From: a virus
Reading direction: 5' to 3' (one strand)
Length of the DNA stretch: 34,869 bases
Virus record (IMG/VR): IMGVR_UViG_3300045988_147840
Coordinates: 1-34,869 of that record
The translations under genes were made by a program, and so were the position numbers. This document shows positions 16,483-20,407 of the stretch, one piece after another. The notes under the pieces were generated by a model. That model made no database searches and was not told where the DNA came from. It saw nothing but the letters and a program-made list of their open reading frames with translations. Positions within the stretch are counted from its first letter, which is position 1, and every line of letters begins with the position of its first letter.

Positions 16483-16511
16483 TTGAAAATTTAATTTAAA
16501 AGTGGTATAAT
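16483..16511 (+). promoter_or_regulatory. SigmaA-type promoter TTGAAA-17-TATAAT at the head of the accessory module
   Basis: TTGAAA at 16483-16488, TGg extension, TATAAT at 16506-16511. Confidence 0.65.
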
Positions 16512-16549
16512 AAATTTAAGGAAATTAACTATAGAACGGAGTTGATAAT

Positions 16550-16774
16550 ATGGAGGAAGAGAATACTTTAGCATTTGAGTTATTGCATGAAGTAAAAAGT
16601 GCTTCCAAAAGATGGTTTATTATATTTATTATAACGTTATTAGCATTGATTGGAACTAATATAGGCTGGCTTATTTATGAATCACAATGGGAATATGTTT
16701 CAGAAGAAACAACTCAGACAATTGAAGATATTGACAATTCAACTAATAGCAAATTTACACAACAAATAAATTAG
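16550..16774 (+). CDS. Small single-pass membrane protein (hypothetical)
   Basis: 74 aa, GGAG RBS, TM segment WFIIFIITLLALIGTNIGWLI. Confidence 0.55.
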   Translation: MEEENTLAFELLHEVKSASKRWFIIFIITLLALIGTNIGWLIYESQWEYVSEETTQTIEDIDNSTNSKFTQQIN

Positions 16775-16784
16775 GAGGTCTGTT

Positions 16785-16889
16785 ATGAGAATGTATCAAA
16801 GTAAAAAAACAATAACTAAAAGAAAAAATAATAACAGGAGGAATACAAATGGCAACTCCAAGAAAGTTAGAAGAAAAAGACGTAAATAA
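16785..16889 (+). CDS. Possible 34-aa highly basic peptide; overlaps the start of the next gene in another frame
   Basis: AGGAGG at 16773-16778, 6-nt spacer, ATG 16785. Product is MRMYQSKKTITKRKNNNRRNTNGNSKKVRRKRRK. Confidence 0.3.
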   Translation: MRMYQSKKTITKRKNNNRRNTNGNSKKVRRKRRK

Positions 16890-17088
16890 ACTAGATTTTA
16901 CAAAATTTGAATTAGAATATATATTAGAAAACGCCAATTTTAGCATTGATGAAGAAAAAATATTTAAAATGATTACAAACAAATATAGAAAAACCATAAT
17001 AAACATAGCAATAGAACTTAATCTTAGCGAAAGCTCTGTTAAAAGAAGAATTAAAAATATAAAATCCAAAATTTTAAGACTACTCTAA
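16849..17088 (+). CDS. Sigma-70 region-4-like HTH protein, a putative phage transcription factor
   Basis: 79 aa. IAIELNLSESSVKRRIKNIKSKI is a typical region-4 HTH. AGGAGGA RBS. Confidence 0.55.
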   Translation: MATPRKLEEKDVNKLDFTKFELEYILENANFSIDEEKIFKMITNKYRKTIINIAIELNLSESSVKRRIKNIKSKILRLL

Positions 17089-17106
17089 AAAGAGTGGTCT
17101 TTTTTT
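17076..17106 (+). terminator. Rho-independent terminator after the sigma-like gene
   Basis: AAGACTACTCT aaaa AGAGTGGTCTT (11 bp, one G-U pair) followed by TTTTT. Confidence 0.75.
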
Positions 17107-17168
17107 GACACTTTTTTGAACTTTTTTAATACAATTTTTATTTTATAATATAATTAGGAGATGATATT

Positions 17169-17210
17169 ATGATGTTTTTTATAACAATAATAAGTGGTGC
17201 AAATGAATAA
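17169..17210 (+). CDS. 13-codon upstream ORF (MMFFITIISGANE), translationally coupled to the 17203 gene
   Basis: AGGAG at 17156-17160, 8-nt spacer, ATG 17169. Its stop at 17208-17210 overlaps ATG 17203 of the next gene (aATGaaTAA). Confidence 0.4.
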   Translation: MMFFITIISGANE

Positions 17211-17670
17211 TTATTATGGATATAATCCAACTAATCCATATTTGTATCAACAATCAAGATATATACAACCTATAGATCAGACTAGTCAAAATATTCAACC
17301 ATTTAATCCACAACCACAAATTATAAATAAGCCTACTAGTTTATTAGGAAAATCAGTAGATAGTATTGATGTAGTAAAAGCTATTGATATTCCATTAGAC
17401 GGAAGTATAAGCTATTTTCCATTGGCGGATGGTACAGCTATTGCTACTAAGCAATTACAACAAAATGGAATAAGTAAAATAATTATTTACAAACCTGTAG
17501 AAGAAAAAGAAAAAAATACACCTAAATATGCTACAGTAGAAGAAGTAGACCAAAAAATAGAAAATATAGATTTTAGTGAAATAGAATATTTAAGAGAAGA
17601 TATGGAAAATTTGCGAAGAGATATGAAGGAAATAAAAAATAAAATGAAAATAAAAGATAAGGAGGATTAA
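17203..17670 (+). CDS. Hypothetical protein: Gln/Pro/Tyr-rich N-terminus, conserved-looking central domain, C-terminal coiled coil
   Basis: ORF-track ORF 17194..17670. The first ATG, at 17203, has no SD of its own and overlaps the uORF stop. Confidence 0.55.
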   Translation: MNNYYGYNPTNPYLYQQSRYIQPIDQTSQNIQPFNPQPQIINKPTSLLGKSVDSIDVVKAIDIPLDGSISYFPLADGTAIATKQLQQNGISKIIIYKPVEEKEKNTPKYATVEEVDQKIENIDFSEIEYLREDMENLRRDMKEIKNKMKIKDKED

Positions 17671-17672
17671 TT

Positions 17673-17900
17673 ATGCCTAATCCAGTACAATTTTTAAAAA
17701 GTGTTATGGGTATTGGTAGCCCTAAACAAATGGTAATGAAAATGATGGGTAATACTAATAATCCTGTTATAAATAATTTAGTAGATATGGCTAACAAAGG
17801 CGATACAAAAGGGATAGAAGAATTCGCTCGTAACTTTTGCAATGAGCGAGGTGGAAACTTTGATTCAGAATTTTCTGAATTTATGAAAAACTTTAAGTAG
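17673..17900 (+). CDS. Hypothetical protein (75 aa)
   Basis: AAGGAGGA RBS, tightly coupled to the upstream gene. Confidence 0.55.
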   Translation: MPNPVQFLKSVMGIGSPKQMVMKMMGNTNNPVINNLVDMANKGDTKGIEEFARNFCNERGGNFDSEFSEFMKNFK

Positions 17901-18782: not shown

Positions 18783-18823
18783 TAAAGTGTGTCCACTACA
18801 CTAAAAAAGTGTGATTTTACTTA

Positions 18824-18853
18824 TAGGGTAGTATCACACTACCCTATTTTTTT
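18824..18853 (+). terminator. Rho-independent terminator, with a possible competing upstream stem
   Basis: TAGGGTAGT atcac ACTACCCTA followed by TTTTTTT. AGTGTGAT (18808-18815) can alternatively pair with ATCACACT (18833-18840). Confidence 0.75.
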
Positions 18854-18869
18854 ATTAAGGAGGAATAAT

Positions 18870-19316
18870 ATGGAATGTGTAAAAAATTGTAGACTTTGCG
18901 ACAAATTTATATTAAGTCAAAGTATTGTATATAATGCAACAGTAAATCAATTAATAGTAGACTTGCCAGCTGGAAGCTATCAAAATTGCTCAAAATATTG
19001 TATAGTTTTGGCACAATCAATTCCAACAGAAACTACAATAAATGCACAGGTAGTGTTTACTATCGGTGGAGATGCAACAGTTGGTTATCCATTTTTAAAT
19101 CAAAATTGTACTCCTATATATGCTTCACAAGTAAGAACAAGAAGACTTTATCCTACAAGAGTAAATACATCTGTTGGAAGCGGAGTGTTTAAATATATAG
19201 GAAATTGTTGCCTACCAAGTAATGCCACAACAGTAAATACTGCTATACCTGTAACTACTGCAACTACAGCTACTCAAAGCACTAGATCAGTAGTAGAAAA
19301 TACTTCTAAAAAATAA
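18870..19316 (+). CDS. Cys-rich hypothetical protein (148 aa)
   Basis: AAGGAGGA RBS then ATG 18870. The ORF-track start at 18789 would run through the terminator. 8 Cys (MECVKNCRLC..., GNCC). Thr-rich C-terminal tail. Confidence 0.65.
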   Translation: MECVKNCRLCDKFILSQSIVYNATVNQLIVDLPAGSYQNCSKYCIVLAQSIPTETTINAQVVFTIGGDATVGYPFLNQNCTPIYASQVRTRRLYPTRVNTSVGSGVFKYIGNCCLPSNATTVNTAIPVTTATTATQSTRSVVENTSKK

Positions 19317-19327
19317 GGGGTGATCTT

Positions 19328-19843
19328 ATGGAAGAAAACAAAGAAATGAATACTGAAGATTTAAATTGTAAAGTAATTTCTGAAGTTGAAAAAGTAATTG
19401 GTCAAATAGTAGGAAATTCTTTACAAGTGGAAAATGTTGATTTACTTGGAAAATTAGTTGATATACATAAAGATATATCAAATGAAAAATATTGGAAAGT
19501 AAAGGAGGATAAAATTATGTATTACAGAGACGATTATAGAGATGACATGTATAGAGGAGGACGTTCAAGAGATAGCCGTGGTAGATATACAGAAAGAGGT
19601 TATGACAAAAGATATCGTGGCGAAGAAATGATAGATCATATGCAAAGAGATTATAGAAATTATAATGAAGGCAGAGAAGAATACAACAGAGGAAATTATG
19701 GAGCAAAAGGCGAAACATTAGAAAGCCTAGAATATATGATGCAATCAGTAGTAGATTTTGTAGATATGCTACAAAAAGATGCTAATTCTCAAGAAGAAAT
19801 AGAAACTATAAAAAAATATACTAGGAAAATAAGTGAAATGTAA
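19328..19843 (+). CDS. Hypothetical protein with an Arg/Tyr/Asp-rich central region; strong in-frame internal start at 19517
   Basis: 171-aa ORF. AAAGGAGG at 19501-19508 plus ATG 19517 in frame (MYYRDDYRDDMYRGGRSRDSRGRY...). Confidence 0.6.
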   Translation: MEENKEMNTEDLNCKVISEVEKVIGQIVGNSLQVENVDLLGKLVDIHKDISNEKYWKVKEDKIMYYRDDYRDDMYRGGRSRDSRGRYTERGYDKRYRGEEMIDHMQRDYRNYNEGREEYNRGNYGAKGETLESLEYMMQSVVDFVDMLQKDANSQEEIETIKKYTRKISEM

Positions 19844-20200
19844 TGTACCAATTTTACAACGCTAACTCAAAAGGCAATTTCACTAACGATTGTGTCATAA
19901 GAGCTATATCATTAGCAGAAAATAAAACTTGGGATGAAACATATGAAAAATTAAGTGACATAGCCCAAGAAGAAGGAATAATTTTAGATGACGTAAATTT
20001 CGTAGAAAATTATTTAGATGAAAGATATAGAAGAATACCACATTATTCAAGATATATAGGAGAATTTATAGAAGAATATCCAAACGGTACATTTCTTGCA
20101 ACAATGCCACGGTCATATAACCGTAATAAAAGATGGAATACTCTATGATACATTTGATTGTAGAAATAGAAGAATGTGGTGTGCTTGGAAAATAAGATAA
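19843..20200 (+). CDS. Papain-like (Cys...His) small protein; continuous only with a +1 shift at in-frame CGG 20110
   Basis: The upstream frame gives ...NDCVIRAIS...NGTFLATMP and then 12 aa of junk. The +1 frame from 20111 gives GHITVIKDGILYDTFDCRNRRMWCAWKIR, ending at TAA 20198-20200. The joined product is 118 aa. Confidence 0.6.
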
Positions 20201-20272
20201 AATAAATGCAGTATTGAAAAATATAGATGAAATGATTGCAATGCAGATTCTATGATATACTGCATAATATAT

Positions 20273-20347
20273 GGCGAGATAGGAAAGTGGTTAATCTCCA
20301 ACTCTGCAAAAGTTGTATCGTCAGTTCAAATCTGACTCTCGCCTCCA
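20273..20347 (+). tRNA. tRNA-Cys(GCA): tRNA-Cys (anticodon GCA)
   Basis: Acceptor GGCGAGA/TCTCGCC, anticodon stem CAACT/AGTTG with loop CTGCAAA, T arm GTCAG-TTCAAAT-CTGAC, discriminator T, encoded CCA. Confidence 0.85.
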
Positions 20348-20374
20348 TATGCAGATATTCATATATCAACCTCT

Positions 20375-20407
20375 GAGAAATGTTTTAAAGCATTTCTCTT
20401 TTTATTT
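20375..20407 (+). terminator. Rho-independent terminator after tRNA-Cys
   Basis: GAGAAATG ttttaaag CATTTCTC followed by TTTTTATTT. Confidence 0.75.

Follow-up and report, generated by a model that had tools for sequence, protein, structure and literature searches.

Gene content and boundaries of the cassette

We analyzed IMG/VR record IMGVR_UViG_3300045988_147840, a complete metagenomic phage contig (34,869 bp; ena:ERZ27261461:k119_144121; hereafter referred to as the window), and focused on a block of small genes that lies between its lysis and early genes. This cassette (window positions 16453-20398, all features on the + strand) has the layout (t)-H-A-B-C-D-E-F-tRNA-Cys, with the full order promoter, t, H, terminator, phased repeats and -10 box, leader open reading frame (ORF), A, B, C, hairpin, D, E, F, tRNA-Cys, and terminator. 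Judged by its architecture alone, the cassette is very probably a conserved, horizontally mobile, and self-contained accessory unit of gut Bacillota phages. An earlier note on the same DNA had proposed looking for conservation of the gene neighborhood, and the same genes in the same order were indeed recovered in about 100 loci.

The cassette opens after the lysis block with a terminator-like hairpin at 16453-16474 (9-bp stem with 4 GC pairs, T-run; -14.0 kcal/mol), contains a second one after H at 17076-17101 (11-bp stem, T-run; -14.4 kcal/mol), and ends on a third at 20375-20398 (10-bp stem, T-run; -10.8 kcal/mol). These three terminators had been described in the note, and our scan recovered all of them plus a fourth hairpin at 18823-18847, with 8 terminator-like sites in 9 kb compared with 1.6 expected from shuffles and folding energies of -10.8 to -14.4 kcal/mol for the four hairpins. 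A hairpin with a T-run is also present 3' of H in most related loci. The GC content of the cassette is slightly above that of its flanks (0.31-0.33 vs 0.24-0.28).

The ORFs listed earlier for t, H, A, B, C, D, and E were found at the sizes given, E being rich in Arg, Tyr, and Asp as described, and the tRNA-Cys followed by a terminator was located at the cassette end. A further candidate, a 34-aa basic peptide, did not survive: the ORF (16785-16889, +) has a good ribosome-binding site and was rejected as a gene because it is A-rich and of low complexity, runs over H in another frame, and has no homologue in the related loci. As the note had supposed, the products of A-F resemble no recognized family, with no curated family in Pfam, NCBIfam, or PADLOC, no PDB match by sequence, and only PHROG matches of unknown function. 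The source names of homologues all read 'hypothetical protein' except for one 'endopeptidase' for F. The PADLOC defence models returned only weak helix-turn-helix (HTH) matches for H (best E 5.3e-5, 21 bits) and a ZorA coiled-coil match for C (E 1.3e-3), and a megablast of the module DNA against 50,697 phage records gave no match.

Distribution, synteny, and mobility

The comparison set comprised about 100 related loci, with iterative hidden Markov models (HMMs) and local tblastn applied over 94 of them; loci where C has 2.6 kb or more of sequence on each side (n = 63) are referred to as well-flanked. A tblastn search with C found 52 phage records, spanning gut metagenomes, lemur and rodent gut, Clostridium perfringens phages, Butyrivibrio phage Ceridwen, and crAss-like phages. 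C homologue clusters, defined at 90% identity, numbered 7,672 of 8,000 candidates scored (68-91% identity among the top matches listed), compared with 517 clusters for D (63-96% identity among the top matches listed) and 606 for F (top matches listed intact, about 118 aa). The GTDB species genomes contributed 224 stretches, mostly 20-60-kb contigs of metagenome-assembled genomes (Clostridia, Bacilli, Lachnospiraceae, and Oscillospiraceae), and plasmids contributed essentially none (only 2 records).

Two fixed gene orders were found over the 94 loci, (t)-H-A-B-C-D-E-F, which is that of the window, and H-F-A-C-D-E. Among the 63 well-flanked loci, A was present in 60, E in 54, B in 43, and H in 40, with F downstream of C in 27 and upstream in 14 (41 in total). 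The insertion site varied widely. In Dulem virus 35 the cassette lies between the minor and major capsid genes, and in the 77-kb phages it precedes the gene for a presumed major capsid protein of ~300 aa and a head-closure gene (Pfam Phage_HCP, weak); elsewhere it was found between the tape-measure and distal-tail genes, or following genes for receptor binding or lysis. In the isolate Vescimonas fastidiosa MM35 it lies at a prophage end beside host genes, and C. perfringens phages carry it in the early region, without E and F. Cassettes with 70-90% identical C proteins occur in unrelated backbones of 35-77 kb. Isolated carriers include Butyrivibrio phage Ceridwen and the C. perfringens phages CPD1, CPQ4, XP41-N3, and 17DYC.

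Two closely related C. perfringens phages differ in the cassette itself. vB_CpeS-17DYC (L102) contains t, H, and A-B-C-D, whereas phiCP13O (L101) contains t and H with another segment in place of A-D, and the flanks of the two are 93-98% identical. Since phiCP13O lacks A-D, a phage of that type can be viable without these genes. The segments compared are 25977-26597 and 29146-30518 in L101 vs 28739-29366 and 31192-34096 in L102.

The earlier note had assigned the module to a moron or lysogenic-conversion slot. The first half of this assignment is borne out by a discrete accessory unit found at about 100 loci in unrelated backbones. Lysogenic conversion is unsupported here, because nearly all genes lie on one strand (+) and no integrase or repressor was found among the window ORFs tested, in a screen that was not exhaustive. 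Ceridwen, one of the carriers, has been seen only in the lytic cycle (PMC7372960).

A candidate activator and its promoter

The promoter predicted at 16483 was recovered as a sigma-70-type promoter-like site for t and H (16483-16511; TTGAAA-17-TATAAT with an upstream TG as extended -10, 11/12), a call at the level of consensus match in AT-rich DNA where the scan found 93 promoter-like matches overall vs 64 expected. The small transmembrane protein of the note corresponds to t (16550-16774), which encodes 74 aa with a single predicted membrane pass and no curated family in Pfam or PHROG. Homologues of t lie immediately 5' of H in 15/63 well-flanked loci, and also in Ceridwen, 17DYC, and phiCP13O.

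H (16849-17088) encodes a 79-aa stand-alone HTH protein that resembles the sigma-70 region-4 or LuxR-GerE type. It was found 5' of the cassette and on the same strand in 40 of the 63 well-flanked loci, so the suggestion that the region-4-like protein belongs to the unit held. The family consensus (61 members) is LTEREREILELRYKGGKTIEEIAEELGISESTVKR, with the region 4.2/LuxR-like pattern LTxRExEIL...IAEELGIS..TVK. Matches of H in Pfam, NCBIfam, and PHROG are restricted to the C-terminal HTH (residues ~31-78), and include phrog_36 'transcriptional regulator' (3.6e-5), phrog_1190 'sigma factor' (7.6e-4), and, weakly, NCBIfam phage_rinA (E 0.04). Region 2, the part responsible for core binding and -10 recognition, is absent from H, and we therefore rejected H as a sigma factor; of the sigma-like protein proposed earlier, the region-4-like HTH remains, and the protein is better read, from its sequence, as a small activator of LuxR/GerE or region-4 type.

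Directly behind the H terminator, we detected three phased direct repeats, TTTTTTGACAC, TTTTTTGAAC, and TTTTTTAATAC (17101-17132; Tandem Repeats Finder (TRF) period 10-11, 2.5 copies), which are candidate binding sites for H. No second such array was found anywhere in the window. The note had pointed to a TTGACA (17105-17110) 19 nt from a TACAAT (17130-17135). Both are present as given, but the TTGACA is part of repeat unit 1 and a better TATAAT -10 lies downstream, at 17144-17154, where two overlapping TATAAT boxes without a good -35 (scan match TTAATA-17-TATAAT, 10/12) likely form the core of the A-F promoter. The note had called this operon the only multi-gene unit without a clean promoter; on this point, the scan gave no promoter match of at least 11/12 ahead of A. 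Phased repeats followed by a -10 box without a good -35 look like the architecture of an activator-dependent promoter.

Relatives contain arrays of their own sequence after the H terminator, including L034, L036, L039, L051, L053, L060, L069, L075, and L077. The units are GTGGCAAAAAA (four copies) in L034 and L039, GTTAC/GTCAC/GTCAC/GCCAC in L036, GACAG-type in L060, L075, and L077, TTACA (seven copies) in L053, and ATGATAAAA (three copies) in L069. Counting k-mers repeated at 10-12 bp did not separate cassette promoters from random windows, and autocorrelation was used instead. Over 51 distinct sequences, the post-H autocorrelation peaked at lag 11 and lag 22, and its lag-11 value (0.349 vs 0.284 in 550 control post-ORF regions) was reached by 0/2000 control resamplings. 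Loci with similar H proteins share repeats, but these loci are close relatives overall, and the comparison of H recognition helix and repeat sequence gave no independent evidence. Considering position and co-occurrence, we regard H as more likely than not to be the activator of the cassette.

Between this promoter and A lies a hydrophobic leader ORF of 13 codons (MMFFITIISGANE; 17169-17210), with AGGAG 8 nt upstream and a stop that overlaps the ATG of A (17203), which agrees with the coupled upstream ORF of the earlier description. Short hydrophobic ORFs occupy the same position in L019, L027, and L031. A different arrangement was seen in L009-L011 (44-78-kb contigs), where the gene before A (L009 8406-8978, L010 8642-9226, and L011 8569-9147) encodes ~190 aa with an AgrB-like membrane domain and a C-terminal region-4-like HTH, and is preceded by a ~180-aa multi-pass membrane protein gene just upstream. 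The AgrB match reaches 31.4 bits in the L011 protein (cut-off 23) and is weak in L009 and L010, and the HTH part is weakly supported by HMMs; this fusion may be a membrane-tethered version of H. Pfam detected no AgrB domain in the window.

C and the C-D hairpin

C (17961-18782) encodes 273 aa with 13 Cys (phrog_16490, 3.7e-39), and the membrane protein with CCC clusters described in the note was recovered in it, with a predicted hydrophobic anchor. It has an N-terminal tail that is conserved in the family (alignment A2) and the hydrophobic anchor WWIIVFLIFAFMGW between Gly-rich flanks; these are followed by a long helical region with two CCC clusters (cysteine motif AACCCDIRQEIADCCCK; AACCC...DCCC) and a Cys/Pro-rich C-terminal tail. 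Conserved motifs are G[LI]CDGFYA, the two CCC clusters, TRD[IL]IENQNAN, and LAASQ. Searches of C against PDB profiles returned only helical noise (ATP-synthase-b and apolipophorin), and no lipobox was seen on reading C and its neighbors. The crAss-like homologues of C were labelled 'spike protein/glycoprotein' or 'viral fiber' by their depositors.

A hairpin with a T-run separates C from D (18823-18847). Its position is kept in cassettes of the D1, D2, and D3 types distinguished below, with compensatory stem changes across all cassette types (L009, L011, L016, L020, L025, L099, L014, L015, and L060), and it may act as an attenuator or partial terminator that sets the C:D ratio. D1-type loci share the box AAAGTGTGATTT just 5' of this hairpin (window spacer 18783-18870).

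In several relatives the C gene is interrupted at one of two sites, the membrane-anchor codons, with an insert of ~0.7 kb containing an HNH_3 ORF, and the first CCC codons, with an insert containing a LAGLIDADG ORF (L017 7179-8135, L028 1177-2097, L029 3124-4131, L034 ~7435-8135, L099 1100-2676, L055 6445-8462, and L047 7800-8965). These look like intron or homing-endonuclease insertions; Rfam at gathering score detected no group I intron in L017, L028, L029, and L034. CPD1 has an ORF between B and C whose DNA matches annotated HNH endonuclease genes. In the crAss-like phage cr116_1 (L094 4116-7383), the C homologue (E 6e-37) comes just after holin and L,D-carboxypeptidase genes, bears the depositors' name 'spike protein/glycoprotein', and is followed by genes for two proteins, one a Cys-bearing beta protein of 136 aa and the other, of 168 aa, combining a beta domain with a coiled coil; the other cassette families gave no significant scores there.

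D, an exchangeable position

D (18870-19316) encodes 148 aa with 8 Cys, as the note had stated. It begins with a CxxxCxxC helix, continues as a beta-sandwich with a CC motif near residue 113, and ends in a Thr/Ala/Pro-rich tail; Cys 3, 7, 10, 44, and 80 are invariant. Its profile gave only chance matches in the PDB by sequence. When the AlphaFold2 (AF2) model of D was compared with BFVD, five small orthologues were followed by matches with probability ~1 (E 5e-5 to 3e-2, template-modelling (TM) score ~0.4) to a collagen triple-helix repeat protein, a T7 tail fibre, a tail-collar fibre, a trimeric-autotransporter stalk, and the crAss-like DUF7841, most of them far longer than D. On these matches D may be a beta domain akin to the tips of phage fibres; a likeness to BclA heads comes from the proteins that other cassettes carry at this position.

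Cassettes without a D of the window's type (D1) carry other Cys-bearing proteins of ~140-155 aa at this position (D2 and D3/D4), which are mutually homologous (hhalign 99.2%). D3 matches Pfam BclA_C below the cut-off (E 3.8e-5, 24 bits vs 38), and the D3/D4 profile gave ten weak PDB matches including TNFSF18 and five BclA sequences; the window D had no match to Pfam BclA_C. As close relatives by C bear different D types (D1 in L009; D3 in L014, L015, and L017), the D position behaves as a swappable module.

A, B, E, and the split gene F

A (17203-17670) encodes 155 aa (phrog_21718) with a Q/N/P/Y-rich N-terminus, a conserved beta-rich core of ~55 aa, and a charged C-terminal helix (alignment A5); profile comparison with the PDB gave only coiled-coil noise. 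B (17673-17900) encodes 75 aa without a family in Pfam or PHROG and, where found, always lies between A and C. E (19328-19843) encodes 171 aa (phrog_28802, 2.1e-12), with helical ends flanking an Arg/Tyr/Asp/Gly-rich disordered center. On reading the sequences, no signal peptide was recognized in A, B, D, E, or F.

F (19843-20200) had been described as a single papain-like protein, which does not hold for this phage, as the Cys and the His and Asp lie in separate frames (19843-20148 with the Cys; 20096-20200 with the His and Asp, frame +1). The break comes from one inserted nucleotide, an additional C within ATGCCACGG at 20107-20108, and the two pieces both match phrog_3754 (profile positions 7-101 and 115-144). 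In homologues the protein is whole and 118-126 aa long, and a close relative, L099 (3955-4110), reads ATG-GAAGG with the frame intact. The same insertion is present in three independent assemblies of this phage (the window, L097, and L098), and the frameshift is therefore real and no read error. F is disrupted in this phage and is either a fixed pseudogene or a +1 frameshift site, with no obvious slippery sequence. Across the family, C17, H91, and D102 are invariant (alignments A3 and A4), and the AF2 model of intact F is confident (predicted local distance difference test (pLDDT) 87), with the Cys at a helix start and the His on a beta strand. F had no match in Pfam or the PDB by sequence or profile. 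Foldseek against the PDB gave weak matches to Tae4, C39 double-glycine peptidase, and Josephin (E 0.26-1.5, TM score 0.36-0.46), and also to NlpC/P60, with 0.26 the best E. The model is consistent with a minimal papain-like fold of the Cys-His-Asp type.

tRNA-Cys and cysteine bias

A tRNA-Cys gene with anticodon GCA lies at 20273-20347 (ARAGORN and Rfam); Rfam at the gathering threshold detected tRNAs only. Among the well-flanked loci, the 27 with F downstream include 17 with a tRNA-Cys 3' of F, 10-900 nt away and on the same strand, and none of the other 36 has one. It accounts for 22 of the 47 tRNAs across all loci, and its carriers are all of low GC (26-36%). The cassette tRNA-Cys genes have diverged to 65% column identity, yet GCA, U73, and an encoded CCA are all kept, which argues that the linkage is old or repeatedly selected.

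Cys makes up on average 4.9% of C plus D vs 1.3% of other long ORFs in the same loci (~4-fold). Of the 13 Cys codons of C in the window, 11 are TGC, whereas the rest of the genome prefers TGT. In the simplest reading of these sequence patterns, the tRNA-Cys, which we regard as a part of the cassette type seen here, would supply highly expressed Cys-rich proteins.

Proposed function and alternatives

These observations can be combined into a model in which a mobile cassette, an activator H, and a membrane-bound C-D assembly acting on the host together give the best explanation, and for this combination as a whole we consider the balance to be even. The model builds on predicted protein features, the lack of signal peptides, portability across unrelated virion types, and dispensability. 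The 16483 promoter would yield t and H; H would bind the tandem repeats, replacing the -35 contact, and turn on A-F and the tRNA-Cys, and the cassette would thereby be expressed whatever the regulatory scheme of the carrier phage. The hydrophobic segment near the N-terminus of C would anchor it in the cytoplasmic membrane, with the CCC-bearing helical part as a stalk, to which D, with its CxxxCxxC helix, would be attached via Cys-mediated links (metal or disulfide). A, B, and E would serve as assembly or matrix partners, and intact F as a processing or cross-linking Cys-His-Asp enzyme. As A, B, D, E, and F have no signal peptides, assembly would begin on the cytoplasmic side, with the tRNA-Cys keeping up high-level translation of Cys-rich proteins in low-GC, Cys-poor hosts. 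Since the cassette is both dispensable and portable across unrelated kinds of virion, we propose that it acts on the host cell, through the state of the membrane or envelope, exclusion, or release, and is no fixed part of the virion. Taken separately, a membrane-anchored C-D assembly acting on the host is a tentative proposal, somewhat more doubtful than the combined picture.

Several observations weigh against this model. The Pfam matches of H are all sub-threshold (HTH_24 E 1.3e-3, Sigma70_r4_2 7.6e-3, and GerE 0.011; 16.3 bits vs a cut-off of 25.7 for Sigma70_r4_2, 12.7 vs 24.1 for Sigma70_r4, and 15.8 vs 23.5 for GerE, PF00196), H is missing or undetected in 23/63 well-flanked loci, and many loci have no obvious array, only a terminator and then ATGC...AAAATATAAT. 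Because phiCP13O holds t and H without A-D, H is not strictly dedicated to A-F and may be a more general phage regulator. The phased repeats found after H family-wide do fit the idea in the earlier note that the operon depends on the sigma-like protein. For D, the AF2 model (an N-terminal helix and eight strands) reaches only moderate pLDDT (69), Foldseek found no PDB match, and hhalign of the D1 profile with D3 and D2 was not significant (probability 10% and 0.1%). A D1 profile search of 1.84 billion representatives for fibre fusions returned 305 matches, nearly all free-standing, and the small number of longer matches have the look of fusions or assembly artefacts rather than of fibres. The contact between C and D is something we purely infer.

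The late-gene location, lack of signal peptides, fibre-like look, and apparent need for high expression would also fit a role in the virion. According to this alternative, C and D, with A and E, would form an optional fibre or decoration that is put together in the cytoplasm before being attached to heads or tails, the hydrophobic segment of C being comparable to those with which tape-measure or ejection proteins insert into membranes. In most cases the cassette is found within the late block or at its end, and on the same strand as the late genes, the D model is like phage fibre and collagen-like proteins while D2/D3 are like BclA_C, the crAss-like C homologues have been named as spikes or fibers, and a tRNA of its own suggests expression at the level of structural proteins. 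However, a docking site shared by unrelated 35-77-kb backbones and a crAss-like phage with a C homologue is hard to picture, the cassette has its own regulator, promoter, and terminators, C. perfringens phages carry it in the early region, and phiCP13O lacks A-D while its structural genes are 93-98% identical to those of 17DYC. We consider this alternative unlikely, though it is the strongest of the competitors to a C-D assembly acting on the host.

An accessory role in lysis or release, in which C as a spanin-type or holin-associated protein and its helpers would aid envelope disruption or the release of progeny, is improbable. Endolysin and holin genes immediately precede the cassette in the window, Dulem virus 33, bajarodcaudo virus 5, Ceridwen, the crAss-like cr116_1, and the prophage of Vescimonas, t encodes a small protein with one membrane pass, and the N-terminal membrane segment, long helix, and Cys/Pro-rich C-terminus of C recall features of i-spanins and o-spanins. 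Nevertheless, most hosts are monoderm Bacillota, which offer no spanin target (carriers are mostly from Clostridia and Bacilli), C has no lipobox, the cassette is often distant from lysis genes, a strong terminator stands between it and the lysis block, and it is dispensable.

Manipulation of sporulation or the spore surface is less probable still. Here a GerE-like regulator and coat-like proteins would alter the coat or exosporium of host spores, as might be suggested by the GerE-type stand-alone HTH of H, the BclA_C-like proteins at the D position, and, by analogy with coat and exosporium proteins, the Cys-rich C and D, the Arg/Tyr/Asp-rich E, and the transglutaminase-like potential of F. 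All these likenesses are sub-threshold or compositional, however, and no lysogeny genes were found among the window ORFs tested. The crAss-like phages, which infect Bacteroidota, carry a C homologue with an adjoining Cys-bearing beta protein, and Butyrivibrio fibrisolvens is not known to sporulate. The cassette is present in Ceridwen, a phage of B. fibrisolvens seen only in the lytic cycle (PMC7372960). Finally, a chance run of unrelated small moron genes between terminators, as might be imagined from the absence of curated families for A-F and the excess of promoter-like matches in AT-rich DNA (93 vs 64), can hardly be credited, being contradicted by an order kept in about 100 loci across very different backbones, high protein conservation, a C-D hairpin kept with compensatory changes, and a tRNA-Cys linked to the cassette.

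Other features of the phage

The phage has a low GC content (24-33%). Its identified genes include those for the portal and minor capsid protein 2, a Gp15-like tail protein, a 972-aa fibre with an S74 chaperone domain, and the endolysin (CHAP+CW_7; 15258-16034), followed beyond the cassette by an early block with Rad52, NinB, HNH, DnaD-like loader, SSB, and RuvC-like genes. A GT2 glycosyltransferase gene and TerL lie near the right end. Three HNH endonuclease genes were found, one (HNH_3+AP2; 14785-15243) directly preceding the endolysin, one (20503-20805) directly past the cassette terminator, and one (24912-25364) in the replication block. A tRNA-Gln/Thr/Trp cluster (30482-30923) and the family-2 glycosyltransferase gene (31285-32079) lie between the replication genes and the terminase. 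TerL is apparently split into a 358-aa ORF (32972-34048) with the Terminase_3 N-terminal domain and an overlapping 122-aa ORF in another frame (33969-34337) without a Pfam match, which may reflect a second frameshift or an intervening element. One of the independent assemblies of this phage, L097, has H called at 35 aa (1889-1996) and the endolysin at 212 aa (436-1074) vs 258 aa; these could be real variants or assembly errors.

Relation to known systems and implications

Phage morons were defined for lambdoid phages as autonomous promoter-gene-terminator insertions in late regions. The cassette is similar in having a promoter-like site and flanking terminator-like hairpins of its own (at the consensus level), in its varied insertion points, in its absence from close relatives, and in its higher GC than the flanks. 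It differs in being much larger (8 protein genes and a tRNA), in its putative internal two-step circuit, and in being a block conserved across thousands of phages. Alt of the lactococcal phage TP901-1 and the late activators of the RinA/ArpU type bind tandem direct repeats upstream of a promoter without a -35. H is comparable in being a short HTH protein whose gene lies immediately 5' of phased repeats and a -10 that would be its target, but it has no significant sequence match to these proteins, and the array precedes an accessory operon rather than packaging or late genes. GerE of Bacillus subtilis is a 74-aa stand-alone HTH protein, which H resembles in size, consensus, and sub-threshold Pfam matches, although H scores below the gathering cut-offs of the region-4 and LuxR-GerE families and has no region 2.

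Likewise, D2/D3/D4 weakly match BclA_C and the D1 model matches fibre proteins in BFVD, which recalls C1q/TNF-type BclA heads and fibre tips, whereas D is a free-standing protein of 130-150 aa with conserved Cys and does not terminate a collagen or fibre chain. F has the invariant order Cys-His-Asp of papain-like enzymes of clan CA (C39, NlpC/P60, and Tae4), and its weak Foldseek matches include several such folds, but it has just 118 aa, a best Foldseek E of 0.26, and an inactivated copy in the window. Phage tRNAs matched to the codon use of late genes are a general phenomenon, and the tRNA-Cys likewise adjoins Cys-enriched genes and occurs only in low-GC carriers; unlike typical phage tRNAs, it is a single tRNA tied to one accessory cassette, the other tRNAs of the window being 10 kb away.

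Searches of the literature on cysteine-rich phage cassettes, tRNA-Cys links, and carrier phages gave no description of the unit, and neither did the Ceridwen genome paper (PMC7372960). Overall, the cassette is real and widespread, and apparently undescribed in the literature covered. Its study in culture is feasible, given the isolated carriers, phiCP13O as a natural relative of 17DYC without A-D, and the Vescimonas fastidiosa MM35 prophage. If our reading is true, an accessory unit that ranks among the most common in gut Bacillota phages, with more than 7,600 clusters of C and six main products without a curated family, has been overlooked, and it would represent a compact, self-sufficient expression module that combines a regulator, an activator-type promoter, an internal attenuator, and a tRNA matched to its cargo. 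More speculatively, and with less likelihood than the host-directed assembly itself, the products might form a phage-borne supramolecular device, with C as a Cys-linked membrane stalk, D as an exchangeable ligand-binding head, and A, B, E, and F as helpers, made plug-and-play by its own activator and tRNA; possible uses would be masking or engaging a component of the host envelope. Its exchangeability suggests that the D position may determine specificity.

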